Shown one piece after another: positions 3,253-12,771 of a DNA stretch of 20,000 nucleotides; the stretch's first letter is position 1, and every line of letters starts with the position of its first letter. The position numbers and the translations under genes were made by a program. Below the pieces are notes generated by a model. It searched no databases. It saw only the letters and a list, made by a program, of their open reading frames with translations, and was not told where the DNA came from. The stretch is taken from the IMG/VR virus record IMGVR_UViG_3300020716_000002, one strand, 5' to 3'. This stretch comes from an uncultured virus (IMG/VR IMGVR_UViG_3300020716_000002) (taxonomy: Duplodnaviria > Heunggongvirae > Uroviricota > Caudoviricetes).

Positions 3253-3566
3253 GCCATTGGTCCCCTAGACATCACACCACGTTCAGCTGCACCTGTACCA
3301 CGAATTTTAATACCTTCAGTCTCAATCTTATCATCGTGCCCAATAGATACGCCACCATTAAGTGGTGTCCAATTTTTACGTGTAGGCATTTCAGCAGCCA
3401 TGCCAATCATTGGGTTCTCAGGATTTTTCTCAATAGCATTAGCACCAAATTTTTTACCTGTCATGGTATGTGGCGGTGCATATTCTGCAGCTGGGCCGTC
3501 GGTCTTGTTCCTGCTGATTTTTACAGAAGGGCTATCTTTTTTGGTTGCAGGTACATTTTTAGCCAT
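3249..3566 (-). CDS. Small basic hypothetical protein (105 aa)
   Basis: Coupled to both neighbours by overlapping start/stop; ends GIKIRGTGAAERGVMSRGPMA. Confidence 0.75.
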   Translation of the reverse strand: MAKNVPATKKDSPSVKISRNKTDGPAAEYAPPHTMTGKKFGANAIEKNPENPMIGMAAEMPTRKNWTPLNGGVSIGHDDKIETEGIKIRGTGAAERGVMSRGPMA

Positions 3567-3796
3567 TATTTTTTACCCCCTTGATTAGCAACTTTAGCTA
3601 GATTACGACCCATAGTTTGCATATTGCCACCATTGGTTAAACCGCCTTTAGCCATTTTCTTCATGGGCATACCACCTTTTTTAAGAGTGATTTTAGTATG
3701 CTTACCAGGATGCTCTTGAGCATCGTGTTCTTTAAAAGCTTTTTTAATCATGGCTTTATCTTGAGCCAAATCACTATCCATCTCTTTTTTTGCCAT
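3566..3796 (-). CDS. Small Lys-rich hypothetical protein with xxKGG motifs (76 aa)
   Basis: Strong SD (TAAGGAG) upstream; contains LKKGG and MAKGG. Confidence 0.8.
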   Translation of the reverse strand: MAKKEMDSDLAQDKAMIKKAFKEHDAQEHPGKHTKITLKKGGMPMKKMAKGGLTNGGNMQTMGRNLAKVANQGGKK

Positions 3797-3805
3797 GATA
3801 ACTCC

Positions 3806-4234
3806 TTATGTTGTGGCAATTGTAACCGTACCTAATGTAATCTTCAATGCTAAATTATTGGGTGTTAGCCCGGCATCATTACTTCTAGAACCCCCAACAG
3901 GATTCCAGCCCCATTGAATAATTCTACTACCAGCTTCTGGAAACCCAACTCCTGTATCTGCAGTTGATCCGCTGTTCGAAGTTTGCAATCCGCTATTTCC
4001 TGATACTTGATAGCTATTATCCCGTCTAGGTTCTCTGACTGCTTGTGGGTCATTGACTGGATACATACCAAGTTGCAACTGGGGATGATCTGGGTCCCAG
4101 CAAGACTGGCAAACTTTAATAGAATAAAGCTTGGTTTTAATGACTTCTTTTTTAAGTTCTTTTAGTTTGTAGCGTTGACCACATCTGTCGCATTCGGCAA
4201 TCGCATATTTACCAGAAGCATATTTGGTAGGCAT
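3806..4234 (-). CDS. Conserved phage protein with putative Zn-ribbon (142 aa)
   Basis: CDRC...CQSC (two CxxC) followed by WDPDHPQ; GAGG SD upstream. Confidence 0.75.
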   Translation of the reverse strand: MPTKYASGKYAIAECDRCGQRYKLKELKKEVIKTKLYSIKVCQSCWDPDHPQLQLGMYPVNDPQAVREPRRDNSYQVSGNSGLQTSNSGSTADTGVGFPEAGSRIIQWGWNPVGGSRSNDAGLTPNNLALKITLGTVTIATT

Positions 4235-4243
4235 TTAAGCACC

Positions 4244-5167
4244 TCAATAAAATAGCTGCCGTGGCACATAACGATCTGCGGCTTTATCTCGGTCTTCTTG
4301 AGACGCAAGTAGCCATTGCTGTTCGTAATCTGCTTTAAGAAACGCAACCCGTTCTGGAGGTATTTCAGGCTTCTTAATGGCAATATAGTATGCTAGTCCA
4401 GCAACCAAACAAGGGATAAGCCTAAATGGAATATCTTCTATGTTTACACCTGTGCCCGCATCTTGTAGTCTGCGAAGACGCCAATAGACAAATGTATAGT
4501 TTCCTCCAGCATCAGGGGTAGGCCAAACATTAATACATGGAAGATTTTGTTGTATTACTGCGGCTCCAGAATTATGTAAAGCTGCGGTTGTGCCGTTTTG
4601 CCCTCTCCAGCAATTGGTAAGTACATTCCCTATAACATTGGTATAACTGATAATTTCATTGTCTATCTGTATAAACCCTGTAGTGGCTAACCCTACTACG
4701 CTGCTGAGTGTAATAGAAGTATCTGTAGCCAGAACTGTACTAGCAACTGTTATGCTGGTTGTGTTTGTCTGCGCTGTTTGGCGGTTGATCCATACTTGGA
4801 TCGGTCTACCATTTGCAAGTTTATTTGGGATTGTCGAGTAGGTAGATTCAGATATCCTCGTGATGTTGATATCAGTTTGTGTACTCGCAGTTCCATTATT
4901 TTGTCTGACGACATGGTCTAGTAAATCAATCGTATCTGATGGGAGTGGGTAAATAGCTTGATTAGAATTTAAAGCAATTGCGCCCTCTTGGATAGTCCAA
5001 AGGTTAATACCGCGATTAGCCCACTCAATAGTTAATAAATTTAGAGAACGAGTTCCTGTACGAAACTCATATCCCGTGCGAATTTCAAGCCCGGCGCGTT
5101 CATACGCCTCCTCCATTATTTCAACTAATGCGGGAGTGAATGAGGCGGAGCCGGACGTATATGCCAT
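4244..5167 (-). CDS. Putative head-tail connector / tail tubular protein with an inserted beta-domain (307 aa)
   Basis: 'EEAYERAG...RSLNLL..EWANRGINLWT', 'VWPTPD' and 'PFR..PCLVAGLAYYIA.K' are connector-like; a 'TTGFIQIDNEII.Y...RGQNGTTAA.H..GA.V' segment sits at about 4555-4765. Confidence 0.7.
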   Translation of the reverse strand: MAYTSGSASFTPALVEIMEEAYERAGLEIRTGYEFRTGTRSLNLLTIEWANRGINLWTIQEGAIALNSNQAIYPLPSDTIDLLDHVVRQNNGTASTQTDINITRISESTYSTIPNKLANGRPIQVWINRQTAQTNTTSITVASTVLATDTSITLSSVVGLATTGFIQIDNEIISYTNVIGNVLTNCWRGQNGTTAALHNSGAAVIQQNLPCINVWPTPDAGGNYTFVYWRLRRLQDAGTGVNIEDIPFRLIPCLVAGLAYYIAIKKPEIPPERVAFLKADYEQQWLLASQEDRDKAADRYVPRQLFY

Positions 5168-5412
5168 TATGCTTTATCAGGTGTAACAACTACTTCAGGT
5201 TCGGCATGATCTGGTTCTTCTGTGTGTTGCACGGGTTCAGCAACCACTTCAGGTTCAGGCACAACAGAATTAACATGGGCATCAAACAAATCATGTAATT
5301 TTTGGGTTGCATCAAGTGTAGTCCCATACATGTTCTGTTCGACTTGCATCATATGCTTAATAATTCTTAGTAGATGACCTGCGTTTTCTTCTACATGATC
5401 TAGTAGACTCAT
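5167..5412 (-). CDS. Small acidic hypothetical protein (81 aa)
   Basis: Overlaps both neighbours at start/stop; helical N-terminus and Pro/Glu/Val tail with EPEVV twice. Confidence 0.65.
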   Translation of the reverse strand: MSLLDHVEENAGHLLRIIKHMMQVEQNMYGTTLDATQKLHDLFDAHVNSVVPEPEVVAEPVQHTEEPDHAEPEVVVTPDKA

Positions 5413-5663
5413 TTTTTCTTCCTTGTTTTAGCTGATTGGATAAAATCTTCTTTACTAGGAGCGCCTTTACTCCCGACTTTTCTCATGTGCTCACCCGACC
5501 CAGCCGCTATCCTTTTTTGCTTCGCATGGATATTGGCATAAAGACCGGGAAGCCCGCCTTTTTTATACATCTCGACATCATTCGGATCGTCCTTACGAAC
5601 GATCTTCTTTTTGCCTGGCATTTTAGATGGGTTCATTGCACCCATCCCACGACTAGACATCAT
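5409..5663 (-). CDS. Small basic hypothetical protein (about 84 aa; start revised from 5693)
   Basis: ATGATG at 5663/5660 overlaps the upstream TGA, so MMSSRGMG is the likelier start; contains YKKGG and a 'GLYANIHAK.KRIAAGSGE.MRK.GSKGAP' block seen in aquatic phages. Confidence 0.75.
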   Translation of the reverse strand: MMSSRGMGAMNPSKMPGKKKIVRKDDPNDVEMYKKGGLPGLYANIHAKQKRIAAGSGEHMRKVGSKGAPSKEDFIQSAKTRKKK

Positions 5664-5863
5664 TTCTTGCCGTAAGCCATTCCACCGCCACACATAGACT
5701 TAACATGCTCATGGAACTTTTTATGTCCAGCAGCGTGTTCGCCGTATGTTTTGTGATGATGACTATGGTCACCTTCTTCCAAATTTTCCATCATATGCAC
5801 ATTGTGTGTATGTGGTGGGCTTGACTCTTTCATGAGTGGGGGATGATCCATACCTTGCTTCAT
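5660..5863 (-). CDS. His/Met-rich small protein (67 aa)
   Basis: TAAGGAG SD; 12 His and 7 Met in 67 aa; ends MCGGGMAYGKK. Confidence 0.75.
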   Translation of the reverse strand: MKQGMDHPPLMKESSPPHTHNVHMMENLEEGDHSHHHKTYGEHAAGHKKFHEHVKSMCGGGMAYGKK

Positions 5864-5872
5864 AATAACTCC

Positions 5873-6463
5873 TTAACAAAATCTACCTTTAGTTTTACCG
5901 CGTTGGGCTATTCCGTCTCCACGACCGGATACAGAACCACCTGACTTATATTTTGACCCTAACATTTCACGGAACTTCTTGCCTGATGAAAATGCCTCAG
6001 CAAGTTTAGAACGATTAGCTGCTCGTTCTGATTCTCCATCATCAGTTTTTGATTTGACTTTACCAGATATATCGCGATAAGTACCTGATGATTTAGGTGC
6101 TGCCTCAGTCTTAGTCTCAGCTTTAGTTTCAGCTTTGGAGGCTGGAGCTTCTGCTTTAGGCGCAGGCTTAGACTCTGCTTTAGGAGCTGGAGCTTCTGCT
6201 TTAGGCGCAGGCTTACTAGAAGCACTTCCGTCTCTACGCTTTAAATTTTGCTGAGCATTTAAATAATCACGAAGATTATCATAAGGAGAAGCGGCTAATT
6301 GTTCTTTAGTAACAATAGCACGTTTAGGAGCTGCGGCTTTAGCAGAAGGTGTAGGCGTTTCAGATGTTTGATCATCTTTATAGTCACTTTCGCTTCCGCT
6401 TCCGGCTTCATAGAAATTACCGTCTACTTCATCGCCTTCGGCATAACGTTTGGTTTTTTTCAT
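5873..6463 (-). CDS. Low-complexity hypothetical protein with Pro/Ala/Lys repeats (196 aa)
   Basis: TAAGGA SD; acidic N-terminus, KPAPKAEAPA and AETK repeats, C-terminal YKSGG...RGDGIAQRGKTKGRFC. Confidence 0.8.
   Translation of the reverse strand: MKKTKRYAEGDEVDGNFYEAGSGSESDYKDDQTSETPTPSAKAAAPKRAIVTKEQLAASPYDNLRDYLNAQQNLKRRDGSASSKPAPKAEAPAPKAESKPAPKAEAPASKAETKAETKTEAAPKSSGTYRDISGKVKSKTDDGESERAANRSKLAEAFSSGKKFREMLGSKYKSGGSVSGRGDGIAQRGKTKGRFC
6141..6215. repeat. Exact 30-bp direct repeat with a 45-bp period (encodes KPAPKAEAP)
   Basis: gctggagcttctgctttaggcgcaggctta at 6141-6170 and 6186-6215. Confidence 0.95.
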
Positions 6464-6472
6464 GTCTATTCC

Positions 6473-7051
6473 TTACATGTATCTGCCTTTGGTCATGCCC
6501 TTTTGTTGGATGGCATGTTGACCAAAACCTTTGTTACCTTTTTTAAGACCTTCTGAACCTTGGGTTTCACCAATGATTGTTCCGCCTGCAGCATATCTTT
6601 TAGCCGCACCACCTTTTTTCATTCCAGTGGTAGAACCTTTCATTTTTTCTTCGATGTCTTTGGTGTGTCCACGTTTTTGAATGCCGTGCTCACCAAATTT
6701 TTTATCCTTATTAGAGCCTTTTTCTACGTCCTCTTTCATGGTACGTGGGCCCATTGATTCAGCTTTACCACCAGAAGCCATCTTTTTGGTTGCCCCGCCT
6801 TTTTTCATGCCACCCATTGCTGGAGCAGCTGGAGCTTGTTGAGCCATTTGAGCTTTTTTCATAGCCATCATAGCTGCTAATTTTCTTGGATCTGTTGCCA
6901 TAGTATCACCACCCTTTGAGAATTTTTTGCCTTTATCGGCGTTGCTAAAGTCTTTTCCCACAGATTGCGGGATACCTACCTTTTTGGCGAACGATGGATT
7001 GTGAGCCACCGCCTCCATAAGATTATGTTGTTTTTTACTTGTGCTCGGCAT
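6473..7051 (-). CDS. Lys/Met/Gly-rich hypothetical protein with an internal duplication (192 aa)
   Basis: Five [MYF]xxGG motifs; duplicated GMKKGG...FG.H.IQ..G.TK unit. Confidence 0.8.
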   Translation of the reverse strand: MPSTSKKQHNLMEAVAHNPSFAKKVGIPQSVGKDFSNADKGKKFSKGGDTMATDPRKLAAMMAMKKAQMAQQAPAAPAMGGMKKGGATKKMASGGKAESMGPRTMKEDVEKGSNKDKKFGEHGIQKRGHTKDIEEKMKGSTTGMKKGGAAKRYAAGGTIIGETQGSEGLKKGNKGFGQHAIQQKGMTKGRYM

Positions 7052-7232
7052 CTTTTTTCTTACGAATTAGTTCATAAAAGCTTTTGCCTGTCACCATCTC
7101 GGCTATACGCATTAACCCTAGTACAGCACCAACTAAACCAAAAATAGGTGAAAACATATTTAGAAACGCGCCAATAGCAGTAAATACCGATATAGTGTCT
7201 ACAGTATTTCTAATAGTATCATGAGTATCCAT
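7035..7232 (-). CDS. Small membrane protein, holin-like (65 aa)
   Basis: Hydrophobic stretch ISVFTAIGAFLNMFSPIFGLVGAVLGLM followed by a basic C-terminus (RKKK). Holin function is an inference only. Confidence 0.5.
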   Translation of the reverse strand: MDTHDTIRNTVDTISVFTAIGAFLNMFSPIFGLVGAVLGLMRIAEMVTGKSFYELIRKKKDAEHK

Positions 7233-7478
7233 TTAACACTTCCAAGCTTTAAGTGATTTGTTGATACGACTGTTTGGGTCTTTTGCCGTTTTCTCTGAAG
7301 TAAGCTTTTTCTTCATCCCAGTCATCCTGGCGCAAAAGGAATCTTTTCTCGATCCGCCTTCTGGTTGCGGCGGTTTCAAGTTGTGCCCTTCTTTCTTCGC
7401 GGAGGCTCGCCCCTTGGCGTTCAGACCACCATTCGGATTTTTGCCTTCTTTTCTCTGCCATGCTGGACTCTTTGCCAT
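7233..7478 (-). CDS. Conserved basic phage protein (81 aa; DUF6321-like from recall; start revised from 7502)
   Basis: ATG at 7478 right after the upstream stop; MAKSPAWQRKEGKNP.GGLN.KGRAS...SFCARM.GM...DPNSRINKSL..W.C is a widespread phage family. Confidence 0.75.
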   Translation of the reverse strand: MAKSPAWQRKEGKNPNGGLNAKGRASAKKEGHNLKPPQPEGGSRKDSFCARMTGMKKKLTSEKTAKDPNSRINKSLKAWKC

Positions 7479-7479
7479 A

Positions 7480-10044
7480 TTATGCCATCGCTTCCTGAGC
7501 AACTACGTTAACCTGTACTGTAGCACCAGCAGAAGAAGTTACCGCAACAGTCAAAATGTCAGCTACGTTACCTCTTACGTTTGTTAAAACAGGGAAGAAA
7601 TTACTTAAATCAAGCTGTTGCAAACCATTAGGAGGAGTAGAGAATGCATACACAACCTCGCCACCAGAGCATTGAATTGCACTTAAATCTTGCTCAGCAA
7701 ATGAGTTATATGAACCCAATGTATTCAAAGCAACAAAATTTGCATTTTGCAATGACAACTGATTGGTAGGTGTACTAGAAATCAACTCAACCAAACAAGT
7801 TGCAGAAGAATTCAACAGAAGTGTTGCAGGTAATAACTGACCGCGGTCAATCAAACCAATCTGATATGTATTACCAGATGCGGGTGGATTCATCAGCGGC
7901 TGTCCAGTCACTACATCGCCAAATGTAATTGCGCTTGTTGTGTTAGATGTAATACGTCCTGTGTATGGAGATACTGCTGATGCGCCAGACACATAAGCAC
8001 CAGGAGTAGTAGTACCAATTGTGATTGATACAGTTGTTGTTGGATTAGTTGCTGGAATCGTAACAGACCAAATACCGTTATAAGTAGTTGGGCTTGATCC
8101 AGAAATAATAATCACATCACCCTGTTTTAACCCGTGGGCAGAAGCAAAAGTAATTACAACAGAGTACTGTGTCAAACCAGCAATTGTTGAGCTTGTGGCT
8201 GCGGCAATAGCGCTGATGGCGGGTAAGCTAGCCTGATAGTAAACAAACTTACCAACCCATTGATTCACGCCCCAGTATGTTGCTGTAGGTGTAGATGTTA
8301 ATGTTGCGCCATTTACCAACTGAATTGGTAGGATCATGGTAGTTGTTGTTGGTACTTGCTGGATTAACCAAGTTTGAGCTGCATATGTTGTTGTAGCAGT
8401 AAGAGTACCTGTACCTGTAGTCTGTGTAGAGCTAACTTGATATGTACCAAGACCGCCTGGAGCATAAGATGTATATGTGCCTGAAGCTTGAGCTGTAAAC
8501 GCCTTGTTAATAGTAATCGTAGCGCCGTTAACCGCAGTGATAAATGTAGTAGCAGGAACTCCTGTACCAGCAAATAATTGACCTACGGCAAACGATGTAC
8601 CTGCTGCCAATACAACTACGCTTGAACCTACTGCGCCGCCACTTGCAAAAGCTTGTGAACCAACTGCAGAACTAGTAGCAGTCAATTGAGCAACAATCGT
8701 TGGTGATCCTGTAACACCAGTTCCTGATAATACTTGTCCAGGTTGCAAAGCGCCTGTAGCAACTGCTGTAGTTACAGTTAAAGTTGTACCAGAAAATGCG
8801 TAGTTACCTGTAGCAATTGTTGCAGTTTCAGTAAATGAACTAAGAGTTACATATTGAGCTGGGCTGTTAGCGTTAGCTGGGTTAGTCACTGCATAACCGT
8901 GAGCAGATGCAAATGTTAATAAAGCTTGTCCGCTATTGGGCTGACCAACCACAGAAGATATGGCAGGAGTTGCCGCACTGATTGTTAATGTCTGTGGTGA
9001 TCCACCAGTACAAGCCGCATTGGTCTGATCAAAAATATCGGAGCCAATTGCTCTCATCCTAAATGACATTGCAGGATAACGAATAGCAGAAGATGGAACT
9101 GAACGATTTTGAGTTTTAGCATCATTACCGTATGAATAGGTAAATCCACGTTGTTTATCAATTGAACCTTCAATAAGCACAGAAACACCGTAGTGAGTCA
9201 TTAATGAAGATGTTGCGCTACCTGTATCTCTTTGCTCATAGCGTACTGGTAAGTTACCTGTACGGCTCCAAGGAGTAGTCTGTGAGTTACCTGTATAAGC
9301 GCCATTACCTGCACCGACTTGATGGAGAATGTAAGGTTCACCATTAAGAACCACGCCCCAACGCAAAGCACCAGCTCCGTACCATGCGTATTCCATCCAT
9401 ATCATTTGAACCTTAGTCCAGTCCAATGCATCACGGATTTGTTTATTGCCGTTCCAAACAGACGCATCAAACACTGTATCTACGGGTAAACCCCCAGAGT
9501 CAGAACGAATTACTACATTCATTGCATATGGATTAGCGGTTGATGTTGCGCCATATTGCATAAAGAATATGCCATTGGAGTCATCAAAGATACCAACACG
9601 TTGGTACTGTCCAGATACAGAAGCACCGAAGTTAACGTTAGATGCCATGTAAAAAGTCTTACCTGGCTGATATCTGTGATATGGGCGGCTTTGACGAATC
9701 GTAATATCGCCTGGTGTATTACCGCCACCAATATTCATTGACACACCACCAAGACCAGGATTCTGAACGATATAAGCTTGTCCAGATACGTTTTGAATCA
9801 CGTTTTCCCAGCGAAGAGGCTGAACGCCATACTCAAAGTCAGCGTCGTAAATATTTTGCGATTGAGATATTTTTAGCTTACCAACAACGTCACGCAGGCG
9901 TTGGGGAGCAATAAACTGTGCTGAACCATCAATACCTTCCCAATCCATTGTAGGTGTTTGTACACCTTGATTAGCAAAACCAATAGCGTTGGTATTGACG
10001 TTCCCTGATTTAGAAAAGAAATAATTACGTAATGACAGACCCAT
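7480..10044 (-). CDS. Large modular beta-rich virion protein, possible spike/fibre (854 aa)
   Basis: Globular N-terminal domain (DADFEYG.QP.RWE, RYQPGK, WYGAG..RWG) and a T/A/S/G-rich middle with two TFASAHG and two GQ...GTGV motifs; AGGGG SD-like element upstream. Confidence 0.75.
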   Translation of the reverse strand: MGLSLRNYFFSKSGNVNTNAIGFANQGVQTPTMDWEGIDGSAQFIAPQRLRDVVGKLKISQSQNIYDADFEYGVQPLRWENVIQNVSGQAYIVQNPGLGGVSMNIGGGNTPGDITIRQSRPYHRYQPGKTFYMASNVNFGASVSGQYQRVGIFDDSNGIFFMQYGATSTANPYAMNVVIRSDSGGLPVDTVFDASVWNGNKQIRDALDWTKVQMIWMEYAWYGAGALRWGVVLNGEPYILHQVGAGNGAYTGNSQTTPWSRTGNLPVRYEQRDTGSATSSLMTHYGVSVLIEGSIDKQRGFTYSYGNDAKTQNRSVPSSAIRYPAMSFRMRAIGSDIFDQTNAACTGGSPQTLTISAATPAISSVVGQPNSGQALLTFASAHGYAVTNPANANSPAQYVTLSSFTETATIATGNYAFSGTTLTVTTAVATGALQPGQVLSGTGVTGSPTIVAQLTATSSAVGSQAFASGGAVGSSVVVLAAGTSFAVGQLFAGTGVPATTFITAVNGATITINKAFTAQASGTYTSYAPGGLGTYQVSSTQTTGTGTLTATTTYAAQTWLIQQVPTTTTMILPIQLVNGATLTSTPTATYWGVNQWVGKFVYYQASLPAISAIAAATSSTIAGLTQYSVVITFASAHGLKQGDVIIISGSSPTTYNGIWSVTIPATNPTTTVSITIGTTTPGAYVSGASAVSPYTGRITSNTTSAITFGDVVTGQPLMNPPASGNTYQIGLIDRGQLLPATLLLNSSATCLVELISSTPTNQLSLQNANFVALNTLGSYNSFAEQDLSAIQCSGGEVVYAFSTPPNGLQQLDLSNFFPVLTNVRGNVADILTVAVTSSAGATVQVNVVAQEAMA

Positions 10045-10059
10045 ATAAACCCCTATTAA

Positions 10060-10086
10060 ATCAAAGAAAGGGGGCTAATGCCCCCT
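10060..10086 (-). terminator. Intrinsic terminator after the 239-aa gene
   Basis: Minus strand AGGGGGC-ATTA-GCCCCCT (10069-10086) followed by TTCTTTGAT. Confidence 0.8.
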
Positions 10087-10091
10087 AGCTA

Positions 10092-10811
10092 TTAGTCGAA
10101 GTTACCGTATGGGTAAGCAGTACCTGTACCAATGTTGGTATCGGCTTGACGATAACGTACAGTAATACCAAACTGACCAGCAGTAGGAGCAGTCAAACCA
10201 GAAGCGGCTGCAATACCAATGGTAAATACCAATTGTGAGAAGAAACTTGGTTGTGTACCAGGTTGTGGGTTTTGAATATCAGAAGTTGTAGATAACAAGT
10301 TATTCAACTGAGTCGCTGAATAAGCTACTGTTTGACGTCCAGCTGTACCTGTAGTTGTTGTACCAATCGCAACTGAAGCATATGTGGGTGTACCGCCGTT
10401 AGCTGTTGTGCTATTGGAAATGTACATGTTAACGCCAGTAGGAGTTGCTGTAATACCAGACATTACAGTTGGCATGTCGATAATAAAGTCTTCAATCTGA
10501 CTCTGAATAGGTAAGTACATAATTACGCCACGATAGACGTTTGTACCTGAATCAGCAGGAGGAGTTGCGGTTGTTGGGCCTGTATTACTAAATACAGAGC
10601 TAGGTGTATACAACTGAGCATTCTGATTAGGAACAGTGTTAGACATAACATACTGTCCAGAACCACCAGCATAACCTGCTGTTTGGTTACCTGTTGTTAC
10701 TGCAAAATCAATATAACAAGTTTGGGTTAAAACTGCGTAACCAACGTCACGAAGAGGTCCAAAACGATTATCGCCAGAAAGAATTGGCCCTTCAAATGTA
10801 CTGCGTCCCAT
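10092..10811 (-). CDS. Putative virion structural / capsid-associated protein (239 aa)
   Basis: Directly downstream of the major capsid gene; 'MGRSTFEGP' start; T/G/S-rich; AAGGA SD at 10820-10824. Confidence 0.7.
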   Translation of the reverse strand: MGRSTFEGPILSGDNRFGPLRDVGYAVLTQTCYIDFAVTTGNQTAGYAGGSGQYVMSNTVPNQNAQLYTPSSVFSNTGPTTATPPADSGTNVYRGVIMYLPIQSQIEDFIIDMPTVMSGITATPTGVNMYISNSTTANGGTPTYASVAIGTTTTGTAGRQTVAYSATQLNNLLSTTSDIQNPQPGTQPSFFSQLVFTIGIAAASGLTAPTAGQFGITVRYRQADTNIGTGTAYPYGNFD

Positions 10812-10819
10812 GATATGAG

Positions 10820-10895
10820 TCCTTATGCAAAAGTTACCTTGTTAATCGTTGCATCGTCTGCTGGGCCAGTGGCAACAAGGTTGAATTCCCAGATA
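10820..10895 (-). ncRNA. Candidate structured cis-RNA (three interleaved stems), possibly Mu-gpT-DE motif
   Basis: Minus strand pairings: CTGGG(10892-10888)/CCCAG(10865-10861); ACCTTGTTG(10881-10873)/TAACAAGGT(10844-10836); ATGCAA(10854-10849)/TTGCAT(10830-10825). Located downstream of a gpT-like capsid gene. Confidence 0.65.
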
Positions 10896-10900
10896 ACCGA

Positions 10901-10928
10901 AATATACACTATTTTTTGACGTTGTCAA
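10901..10928 (-). promoter_or_regulatory. Sigma70-type promoter for the 239-aa gene
   Basis: Minus strand TTGACA (10928-10923), 16-nt spacer, TATATT (10906-10901); overlaps the palindrome TTGAC-GTT-GTCAA (10916-10928). Confidence 0.65.
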
Positions 10929-10953
10929 CAAAAATGGCCCCGAAGGGCCATTT
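10927..10953 (-). terminator. Intrinsic terminator after the major capsid gene
   Basis: Minus strand AAATGGCCC-TTCG-GGGCCATTT (cUUCGg tetraloop, 9-bp stem) then TTGTT, starting 3 nt after the stop codon. Confidence 0.9.
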
Positions 10954-10956
10954 ATT

Positions 10957-11859
10957 TTAGTAAGAACCGTAAACACCGAGTGGATCAGACCATCCGAATG
11001 AATAACGCTCTCTAGACTTGTAACGTACGTTACCTGTATCAAAGTCACCGTCCATTGAATTCTGTAGTGGAATACGGACAAAGTGCTTGAGACCGTTAGG
11101 TACATCAGTTGTCAAGAACCAAGCATTTGGCGCTGTCAAGAAGTGATTGATTGTGTAGCCTTCTGGTACAGAACCGTTGTTCTCGATAGCGTTAATGTCG
11201 TTGTTATTTGTACCAACGCGCAGTTTTGTCTCTAACAAACGAGTAGCGACGAACTGTAATGCTGGTGGAATAATCAACTTCTTGGGCTTAGCTGCGATCA
11301 AAAGACCACGCTCATCTGTCCAAGCTGCAATCTGGATAACTGCATTTTCAATTGCAGTTTCGTTCAAGTCAGCAGGAGTAGTAGGAGTGTTGCCGTTTGT
11401 ACCACCGTTGATCAGTGGGTGAGCTGTGTTAAATAAAGAAACACCATCACCACCAACGTAAGAAGCGTTGAAACCGTTGTTGAGAACGGAAGCTGCTTTT
11501 ACTTGCTTGGTGTAAGCCATAGCACGAGCTAGACCCTTGGTATAACGTGCTGACAAAGAGTCATACAAGTTATCTTCAATAGCTTCTTCTGTTAAAGAGA
11601 AGCCAAGAGCGATAGTTTCGTGGTTATAGCGAGCTGTCCATGCTTCTTGCGCATTGTCATAAGCGATGGCATTGCCCTCACCCTTGACTGGTGCTGCAGA
11701 GAATCCTGACAGTTTGGTTTCTTCTTCAAATGAACGCTCTGAGGTCTCTGTTTCGTAGATCTCTTTGTGCTCTTCGCCGTAACGTGCATACTCTAAACCG
11801 AACAATGCGTTCAAGCCTGGGAGCAGCTCTTTCAATAGTTGTGCGCGTGAAATAGCCAT
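10957..11859 (-). CDS. Major capsid protein (Mu gpT-like family, HK97 fold inferred; 300 aa)
   Basis: MAISRAQLLKELLPGLNALFGLEY...SERSFEEE..LSGF..APVK.EG...EEAIEDNLY...DGDFDTGNVRYK.RERYSFGWSDP; strong AAGGAG SD, downstream terminator, position after the scaffold. Confidence 0.9.
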   Translation of the reverse strand: MAISRAQLLKELLPGLNALFGLEYARYGEEHKEIYETETSERSFEEETKLSGFSAAPVKGEGNAIAYDNAQEAWTARYNHETIALGFSLTEEAIEDNLYDSLSARYTKGLARAMAYTKQVKAASVLNNGFNASYVGGDGVSLFNTAHPLINGGTNGNTPTTPADLNETAIENAVIQIAAWTDERGLLIAAKPKKLIIPPALQFVATRLLETKLRVGTNNNDINAIENNGSVPEGYTINHFLTAPNAWFLTTDVPNGLKHFVRIPLQNSMDGDFDTGNVRYKSRERYSFGWSDPLGVYGSY

Positions 11860-11871
11860 TTAGATTACTCC

Positions 11872-12771
11872 TTAGATTGAGGCATTGGGTGTATTGTTGT
11901 AATACTCATGTAAACCGAAGTTGATTTTCACCAATACTTCAGGATAGCAAGTAAACACAACAGTAGCGTTTGCTGGAATAGAGCTAACTGCTCCGCCTGG
12001 GGCTGCATTTAATGTTACGCTGGTACCACTTGTATAAGCAGAAGCAACATAAGAACCAGAGAAAGCAACAAATCCATTAGAGTCAAGGTAGCCAACTTCA
12101 GTACCAATTGGAATACTAGTATATCCAGAAGCAAAAGAAGTAATAGCAGAAGCTAAAGTTAGCGTTGTGCTAGTACATGCTGTACCACCGTTAGTACCGG
12201 AAGTAGCAACAGCTGTCTCACGAGCCAAGTCAATAACACGCAAAGGCATTGCTGTGTTAGAAGCGCTTGGTAATGATGCAGATGTCAATGCAGCGTTCTT
12301 AGAGTTACCTGTAGCGGTAGAACCAGCCAAGTTAGAAACTGACAAGTTTTGACCGATAAACGCAGTAGAAGCAGATGCGATTGTTGTTCCGCCTTGTGAG
12401 CTTACAACAGCTGTTCTGAACACTGTATCAGGATCGTCTGTAACAACAGCAAACGCGTCACCAGCAAGAGTACCACCGGGCCAGTATTGGCTAAATAGTT
12501 TTTGCTTAGTTGTTGGGTTTGTGTAAGAACAGCCAAGGAAGATACCAACCATACCATAACCAGCGCCACCGGTAGTGCTTCCAGCACCGGTAGTAACAGT
12601 CATACGTGTGACGGTACCAGTCAAAGAGATATTAACAAAGTCACCATAATAGATGTTTGTTGCATATCCATACTGGATAGGAATTTGACGAGTAGAACCC
12701 GCAAACACCTGTCCACCAATCAGATTGATTGGCTTCAGCCCGTAAGGGGCAGATACTTGAGGAAAAGCCAT
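11872..12771 (-). CDS. Putative capsid cement/decoration protein with an inserted beta-domain (299 aa)
   Basis: 'APYGLKPINLIGGQVFAGSTR', 'GIFLGCSYT.P' and 'V.DDPD..F' motifs; immediately upstream of the major capsid gene; GGAG SD. Confidence 0.65.
   Translation of the reverse strand: MAFPQVSAPYGLKPINLIGGQVFAGSTRQIPIQYGYATNIYYGDFVNISLTGTVTRMTVTTGAGSTTGGAGYGMVGIFLGCSYTNPTTKQKLFSQYWPGGTLAGDAFAVVTDDPDTVFRTAVVSSQGGTTIASASTAFIGQNLSVSNLAGSTATGNSKNAALTSASLPSASNTAMPLRVIDLARETAVATSGTNGGTACTSTTLTLASAITSFASGYTSIPIGTEVGYLDSNGFVAFSGSYVASAYTSGTSVTLNAAPGGAVSSIPANATVVFTCYPEVLVKINFGLHEYYNNTPNASI

Follow-up and report, generated by a model that had tools for sequence, protein, structure and literature searches.

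A predicted double-pseudoknot leader RNA, related to Mu-gpT-DE, precedes a cement-like gene in HTVC023P-type phages and probably controls its translation

Between the major capsid gene of a complete 66,312-bp phage record and the gene that follows it lies an intergenic stretch of roughly 75 bases that can be folded, on the minus strand, into interleaved helices ending at a ribosome-binding site; this arrangement raises the question of which of the two genes the RNA serves, and by what means it might do so. The window (the whole stretch of DNA analysed, 20,000 nucleotides) belongs to this record, whose head-tail module (terminase, portal, GroES, capsid and adaptors) is encoded on the minus strand. 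A search with the window capsid protein (phrog_371 major head; 63% identity to the HTVC023P capsid) matched 22 phage records, with the SAR11 phages HTVC023P and HTVC027P, DSL-LC04 and the Roseobacter phages CRP-901/902 among the best matches, and by these matches the source is assigned as an HTVC023P-type phage. Five lake metatranscriptomes shared 5-6% of sampled words; their contigs (four examined) are those of relatives and carry no start, end or strand information. The features that frame the element are as follows.

10957..11859, minus strand: major capsid protein gene, 300 aa, upstream neighbour (PF25209, E 7.6e-13; PF10124 Mu-like_gpT, E 1.8e-8)
10932..10953, listed on the plus strand: terminator-like hairpin past the capsid gene, followed on the minus strand by a T run into the -35 box
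10901..10928, minus strand: sigma-70-type promoter (-35 box 10928-10923, -10 box 10906-10901; 11/12 consensus matches)
10092..10811, minus strand: gene for a 239-aa cement/decoration-like protein with a predicted disordered N-terminal arm (residues ~1-23) and beta jelly-roll (AF2 and structure search)
10069..10086, minus strand: intrinsic-terminator-like site past the cement-like gene (terminator scan)

The initial annotation had described three complementary pairs in the order a-b-a'-c-b'-c', and these are found at the positions it gave: a/a' (10892-10888 with 10865-10861, 5 bp), b/b' (10881-10873 with 10844-10836, 9 bp including one G-U) and c/c' (10854-10849 with 10830-10825, 6 bp), all on the minus strand. 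It had overlooked a fourth helix, d (10869-10867 with 10860-10858, 3 bp, minus strand), the 6-nt loop of which contains a', and the full strand order is a-b-d-a'-d'-c-b'-c'. The nested frame is a hairpin made of b and d; strand a, at the 5' end, pairs with the terminal loop of this hairpin (a/a'), while the 3' tail pairs with its internal loop (c/c'). None of 3000 dinucleotide shuffles reproduced the three-helix interleaving, and only one of 3986 sliding 76-nt windows contained it, this being the element itself. The nested minimum-free-energy fold is ordinary (z 0.57), as one would expect of a fold that leaves pseudoknots out. Loop-loop dimerisation was considered as well, and rejected since a' of the window is not palindromic. 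Strand by strand, the element reads as follows.

10888..10892, minus strand: strand a, 5' end of the leader, partner of a' (pairing and homologues)
10873..10881, minus strand: strand b, 5' side of the 9-bp basal helix (pairing and covariation)
10867..10870, minus strand: conserved junction A (10870) and strand d (10869-10867) (alignment, variants)
10861..10865, minus strand: strand a', within the loop of helix d, pseudoknot 1 (pairing and homologues)
10856..10860, minus strand: strand d' (10860-10858) and conserved AC linker (10857-10856) (alignment)
10849..10854, minus strand: strand c, 5' side of pseudoknot 2 (pairing and swap control)
10846..10847, minus strand: conserved GA linker preceding b' (near-invariant in alignment A2 and also in the Rfam Mu-gpT-DE consensus)
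10836..10844, minus strand: strand b' (pairing and covariation)
10825..10830, minus strand: strand c', adjoining the Shine-Dalgarno (pairing and swap control)
10820..10824, minus strand: Shine-Dalgarno (SD), 8 nt 5' of the ATG (10811) (sequence)

Three sets of loci allowed the pairings to be followed through related phages: 80 selected by capsid similarity (the best 80 of 601), 240 from two core patterns, and a further 240 from 3'-half patterns free of any demand on strands a and d. From the loci available at an earlier stage of this collection a parser retained 229 distinct elements; thirteen of these were then set aside for their start (12 mis-called, one bad), and alignment A2 comprises 133 representatives at <88% identity. 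Helix b has two-sided changes at 8/8 pairs (A2, n=133), and 95.5% of its cells are paired, compared with 20-49% in slid controls, a value equalled by 0/500 shuffles (n=133) and inflated by the selection of sequences for a helix b of at least 5 bp, yet spanning 83 distinct 5' heptamers. Strands a and a' pair correctly in 218 of 224 unfiltered pattern matches; among distinct copies picked on the 3' half alone they are Watson-Crick throughout in 100/100 and 107/111 (207/211), in at least nine sequence versions. All three positions of helix d change (CUG/CAG, CAG/CUG, CCC/GGG, CCG/CGG and CCU/AGG), an exact pattern for the CCC/GGG variant proving too strict to match any of 581 loci. In 83% of the 133 representatives helix c forms at least 6 bp when its 3' partner is sought in the same sequence; among 13,262 swapped pairs the share is 16%. 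The alignments therefore indicate that all four helices covary across HTVC023P-type phages, cultured HTVC023P and DSL-LC04 included, such that the three stems first noted, and d with them, are kept in homologous loci with compensating changes.

What the helices leave unpaired is sparse but constant: some five bases are near-invariant (the A before d, the AC after d and the GA before b'), and AC and GA are 8 nt apart in 78%. A small self-cleaving ribozyme or processing site had been raised as an alternative at the outset. HDV-like ribozymes follow the order P1-P2-P3-P1.1-P4 and have an invariant catalytic C before P2'; the leader is a nested double pseudoknot of ribozyme size, and its 3-bp helix with 6-nt loop loosely resembles the HDV P3/L3. 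The order a-b-d-a'-d'-c-b'-c' is nonetheless unlike that of HDV, the one position that could hold an HDV-type catalytic C, just before GA, is occupied by A in 82% and by C in 17%, no Rfam ribozyme matches, and a dedicated promoter already generates the 5' end, leaving the ribozyme reading unsupported and, to our minds, hardly credible.

From partial scans, we estimate the abundance of the double-pseudoknot form at ~6,600 + 3,900 IMG/VR stretches. Model R1 scores HTVC023P at 57.6 bits and DSL-LC04 at 55.8 bits (both members of its training set), and the divergent leader of HTVC027P at 19.2 bits, its helices being recognised by eye. In this last leader (L455:3978-4059) the a/a' pair differs and helix d is weakened, but the A/AC/GA junction is the same; two small genes separate it from the capsid gene. 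Alcaligenes phage QDWS535, with a capsid-cement gap of only 51 nt, carries no leader, and neither Pag-Yong1 nor Caulobacter phage RW gave a leader match with R1; leader control therefore appears dispensable in some relatives.

To which gene the leader belongs can be read from loci in which its two neighbours have been parted. R1 found one copy in the phage's own genome and copies in 65 of the 80 capsid-selected loci (17 of these in the training set); the other 15 show no cement-type start within the fetched DNA, six of them having <500 nt downstream. Although in 41 of the 65 copies no more than 150 nt separates the leader from the capsid stop (helix a starts 64 nt past it in the window), inserted genes displace the leader by 331-1532 nt in the remaining 24, and in G051 it sits 3.2 kb from the capsid stop, still directly before the cement-type gene. 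An arm-type gene start (the shared protein arm is described below) follows the leader in 63/65 copies, the other two being cut short. A GTDB sample of 120 hits (of ~430 estimated; one d subtype) gave eight full folds and one spacing variant, all of which precede an arm-type phage gene, with no full copy before a metabolic gene in those 120 hits. Because inserted genes part the element from the capsid gene while it keeps its place before the cement gene, we conclude by comparison of loci, in agreement with the initial annotation, that it is the 5' leader of the post-capsid cement-like gene and not a capsid 3' element. A reading as a 3' element on the capsid message, or as a free sRNA, would suit the 41 closely placed copies and the name and type ('Gene; sRNA') of the related Rfam family discussed below; we hold it to be very improbable given the 24 copies that stay with the cement gene, and given that a terminator and a promoter intervene after the capsid gene while no terminator stands between the element and the ATG.

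The transcription signals place the element at the front of its message. The leader promoter is the best of 33 promoter matches in the window, and its -10 hexamer has its last base at 10901, which leaves 8 nt to strand a, in line with the spacing of about 8 nt noted earlier; the predicted transcription start lies near 10894-10895, 0-3 nt before helix a. A -10-like hexamer is found 7-9 nt before helix a in 155/227 homologues, compared with 8-25 at seven other spacing triplets, and the element is therefore likely to be the complete 5' UTR of the cement-like gene mRNA, much as had been supposed. Hairpins comparable to that past the window capsid gene occur 3' of the capsid stop in the relatives examined. 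With its own promoter upstream and a terminator-like site downstream, the 239-aa cement-like gene is likely a one-gene transcription unit.

The gap between capsid and cement genes is also an insertion hot spot (24/65 loci, including L007, L017, L029, L035, L045, L052, L056, L057, L064 and L067); many of the inserts are endonuclease-like, one a confirmed GIY-YIG/NUMOD3, and in L582 and L583 the leader -35 box sits at the extreme end of the inserted gene. Three opposite-strand genes separate capsid and cement in L584:325-3415 (G051; also L008 and L009), by eye methyltransferase-, glycosyltransferase- and TPR-like. One record (G008) carries two differing leader-plus-cement cassettes at its two ends (L582:2499-2593 and L583:315-402), each preceded by a similar endonuclease-like gene; a chimeric assembly is the likely explanation, with a real duplication as the alternative. 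A weak match before the capsid gene of L071 was rejected as a second copy, as no helices are present. Copies in bins of unrelated bacterial taxa (L463, L464, L476, L492, L497, L501, L507, L509 and L561) are most likely phage contigs that were co-binned, and hence no evidence of host range.

We then considered the kinship of the leader with a catalogued motif. Mu-gpT-DE is reportedly due to Weinberg and colleagues (2017), and its name presumably denotes a position downstream of a Mu gpT-like capsid gene. In Rfam it is RF03012, with 53 positions and the type 'Gene; sRNA'. The window fits this position in that its upstream gene matches PF10124, and the initial annotation had named Mu-gpT-DE on the ground of position as well. 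RF03012 itself gave no match at the element in 301 nt at E<=10, nor in the phage's own genome; it emerged only on search of a 121-nt stretch. Among 50 related records none exceeded the 49-bit gathering cut-off (best on-element score, 17 bits), although three of the top four weak matches (13-17 bits) cover b to b' of the element, and an Rfam scan returned no match on the element in the window, in 17 capsid loci or in 20 motif loci. In the reverse direction, R1 scored weakly (<=16 bits on the element) on 40 true Mu-gpT-DE loci, so that kinship rests on shared core, slot and gene and not on cross-model scores.

The shared core consists of a basal helix, a single A, a C-W-G helix (CAG/CUG helix d in the Mu-gpT-DE consensus), AC, the c strand or spacer, GA and b', the window having in addition a small internal loop at the top of b; the shared slot runs from terminator through -10 box, element and SD to an arm-type gene. 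A pattern drawn from the RF03012 consensus fetched true members (18 of 20 tested lay above the cut-off) and gave ~2,200 raw IMG/VR matches, some of them by chance. Mu-gpT-DE lacks strand a and lengthens helix d by 3-5 bp as a plain hairpin (~13 nt), whereas the window has a 6-nt d loop that pairs with the upstream 5' strand a. Helix b is ~4 bp in Mu-gpT-DE, with a b' that overlaps the SD, in contrast to the 9 bp of the window. The c strand of Mu-gpT-DE could pair with the region of the start codon (5-6 bp in 56/63 copies, 4 bp in 7), a pairing absent from the Rfam model, and a -10 box lies 7-9 nt before b in 53/63. CRP-902 carries the Mu-gpT-DE form (72.3 bits), and both forms are mixed within the same protein clusters. 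The link proposed at the outset thus holds for slot and junction core and fails for membership, the element scoring below the RF03012 cut-off with an a/a' pseudoknot in place of the hairpin; by alignment, the window carries a rewired form of the Mu-gpT-DE core in which the strand that extends d is supplied by the 5' end.

In the literature, 'Mu-gpT-DE' was found only in CaCoFold work, the portion of which available to us gives extra covarying pairs and no function. The main text of PMC5737381 has no 'gpT', and its supplement, outside our search, may hold an earlier description of the double-pseudoknot form; the motif is absent from the main text of PMC10085705 and from the main text and searchable supplements of PMC10690425 (files 1, 2 and 4, outside the search, may hold it). 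A search of literature listings and abstracts returned no paper on this leader. As far as these searches reached, the double-pseudoknot architecture is uncatalogued, while the underlying Mu-gpT-DE motif is already known, as an orphan. That orphan would gain a testable job, as the 5' leader of a capsid-surface gene with pairing over SD and start codon, and would be re-read as neither a downstream element nor an sRNA, the catalogued form being just one of its architectures; cultured carriers of both forms (HTVC023P and DSL-LC04; CRP-902) make the mechanism directly testable.

How might such a leader act? As first noted, c' (10830-10825) ends right against the SD (10824-10820), as the coordinates bear out. 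Among the 133 representatives, 66 have c' directly next to the SD, 33 have it sharing bases with the SD and 18 have it lying over the AUG; in the other 16 it stops at least two bases short. The SD is itself unpaired in 82/133, the window and these 16 included. With helix c at the SD or AUG in 117/133, the folded leader is likely a translation-OFF state. Codon 2 is GCN in 88/88 AUG-pairing forms and in 161/199 others, counts that ignore kinship. Leaders of the CCGGG class offer strand a another partner 4-6 nt downstream (~56/57, versus 27-38% shuffled), a pairing that excludes a/a' and covaries with a in single cases. Most of the CUAGG class lacks this alternative 5' hairpin and the window has it only in weak form; where present it suggests two leader states. 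During HTVC027P infection (the order in time taken from the seven time points of PMC12753301), cement-slot mRNA stands at 1.23 times capsid mRNA at 9 h and at 0.38 times by 15 h (PMC12753301, Table S3). The value at 9 h implies that the cement message runs ahead of the heads, and an early excess of cement mRNA fits both a promoter of its own and the use of a brake until heads exist. Translational control of the cement-like gene by some route is, in our view, probable.

A first route would be a static brake, with an effector-free fold that sets a fixed initiation rate (S1 or the 30S subunit unfolding it) and a 5' end paired against decay. Such a brake is compatible with any protein body and with the small number of invariant bases, and in either architecture the placing of the -10 box (155/227, and 53/63 for Mu-gpT-DE) predicts a message whose first few bases already lead into a helix. 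A simple hairpin would suffice for this purpose, yet the A/AC/GA junction and its 8-nt spacing (78%) are retained in two architectures and in phages of SAR11, Roseobacter and a gammaproteobacterium, and the CCGGG class retains its exclusive alternative hairpin; we consider a static brake somewhat unlikely.

A phage-restricted riboswitch, through which capsid reinforcement or display would be adjusted to conditions by way of a small molecule or ion, is the second route. SAM-II and preQ1 are translational H-type pseudoknot riboswitches, and the pseudoknot made by leader helices b and c is likewise of the H type, its second stem extending to the SD; the compact fold, the conserved junction, the end at SD or AUG (a riboswitch-like trait seen in 117/133), the independence from the protein body and the alternative pairing in one class are all in keeping with this. 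Unlike SAM-II and preQ1, however, the leader has an inserted helix d and a second pseudoknot, only about five unpaired near-invariant bases (helix sequences vary freely), and one phage gene only in the samples examined, the full folds among the 120 sampled GTDB hits (of ~430; one d subtype) preceding the arm-type gene and none a metabolic gene. We regard a riboswitch as quite unlikely, noting that a small-molecule effector would define a phage-restricted riboswitch class.

A third route would run through a protein, and the product of the gene is the likeliest candidate. The 239-aa protein has no Pfam or PHROG match, and an ESM Atlas search returned only unnamed viral clusters. Its AF2 model (mean pLDDT 85.6) is a jelly-roll beta sandwich whose gene adjoins the capsid gene, as in Pam1/KHP40/GP4/BPP-1-type cement proteins. 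In the VIA-align ranking, three cement-type chains come within the first five places and one more at place 15; the four scores are Z 7.3 for KHP40 cement (rmsd 3.9, 113 aligned), Z 7.0 for Pam1 7eel_H (rmsd 4.4, 125 aligned), Z 6.7 for GP4 8h89_J and Z 6.0 for BPP-1 3j4u_H. Foldseek gave 7eel_H a probability of 0.89 (E 0.069). The DSL-LC04 gene in the same slot is annotated 'cement protein'. We refer to the modelled product as cement-like, Z scores <8 being middling and the weight being shared by gene position and the DSL-LC04 annotation.

The initial annotation had suggested possible autoregulation by the 239-aa protein; comparison of the genes behind the leader rules out such a role for its folded body. 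An identical 25-nt RNA core lies upstream of proteins from 17 sequence clusters, and with the first 22 residues removed 53 of the 55 pairs of the 11 largest clusters have no profile similarity above 40% probability. What these proteins share is an arm motif, T-F-x-G-P-V, which is not basic and is itself variable (divergent arms of the TQSIW, HLGPW and HYSGPL types follow the same RNA cores). Since one identical core precedes many non-homologous bodies, the comparison excludes the body as a common RNA binder, and autoregulation, if it occurs, would need to act by way of the N-terminal arm that these proteins have in common. Conservation of the arm could equally be explained, by analogy, by capsid docking with no role in RNA recognition; in Pam1 the cement N-terminal loop touches the capsid E-loop (PMC9698820). 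The slot as a whole resembles a display cassette, with a conserved arm of ~16 residues joined to unrelated bodies of 87 to >230 aa in 46 clusters.

The same diversity could be accommodated by a different effector, be it a further conserved head protein (the capsid or the scaffold) or a ribosomal factor of the host by which the 30S subunit is trapped on the pseudoknot. The capsid is 86-94% identical across loci whose downstream proteins have only the arm in common, and entrapment as described for E. coli rpsO/S15 and alpha-operon/S4 (PMC3616713) would suit the forms with a free SD. Those systems resemble the leader in that a pseudoknot or double pseudoknot sits where translation starts, can take up alternative conformers and serves to control stoichiometry (same source); their effectors are rRNA-binding proteins, and the leader differs in strand order and in preceding a phage structural gene. 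No second leader copy was found before any other head gene, leader types are scattered on the capsid tree (24 loci, 11 changes compared with 11.6 shuffled), and no Rfam ribosomal-protein leader matches. We judge an effector of this kind unlikely.

We tentatively favour feedback by free cement protein through its arm, relieved as heads assemble. In this proposal the four-helix double pseudoknot would make up the whole 5' UTR of the cement-like mRNA, and its folded form would park helix c on or against the ribosome-binding region and so switch translation off; the effector would be a phage head protein, most likely free cement acting via the conserved N-terminal arm. Helices b, d and c would come together where the conserved A, AC and GA line their junction, and this junction would serve as the recognition surface, with a/a' merely bracing helix d as a plain hairpin may do in Mu-gpT-DE, and effector bound there would favour the OFF fold. 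Assembled heads would soak up the free effector and release the brake, matching cement output to capsids. Several observations count against this proposal: the SD left unpaired in 82/133, an arm that is not basic and that diverges behind the same RNA cores, an alternative 5' hairpin of little strength in the window, and relatives that lack the leader. A precedent for the logic is the T4 gene 32 operator, likewise a phage leader pseudoknot under autogenous repression once the protein exceeds its primary ligand (PMC3014915). In the same source gp32 is a nucleic-acid-binding protein, and a two-helix pseudoknot 67 nt upstream of the start nucleates its cooperative binding; the present leader, unlike that of gene 32, has four helices that touch the SD or AUG, and its product would be a capsid-surface protein with no known RNA binding. 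Were the effector a structural protein, the leader would join the very few known phage pseudoknot operators.

It is possible, though we think it doubtful, that the A/AC/GA junction forms a true binding pocket (for arm peptide, small molecule or ion) and that the leader represents a phage-born class of switch that meters interchangeable surface proteins. On this view a single three-dimensional fold would underlie Mu-gpT-DE and the double pseudoknot, its strands re-ordered in nature by the shift of one helix strand from a hairpin to the 5' end of the mRNA, and the carriers would be among the most abundant aquatic phage groups.

Elsewhere in the head-tail region, a 299-aa gene just upstream of the capsid gene (window 11872-12771, minus strand) has no Pfam or PHROG match; cultured relatives carry a gene of ~190 aa in the same slot, and its product is possibly a second head-surface protein. 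A series of small Lys-rich ORFs (window 3566-7502, minus strand; 76, 94, 67, 196, 192 and 89 aa) includes several in which KKGG/KGG motifs recur, possibly encoding internal virion proteins, and inside the 196-aa ORF 34-nt direct repeats (window 6134-6212 and 6323-6356) code for repeats of the KPAPKAEAP type.
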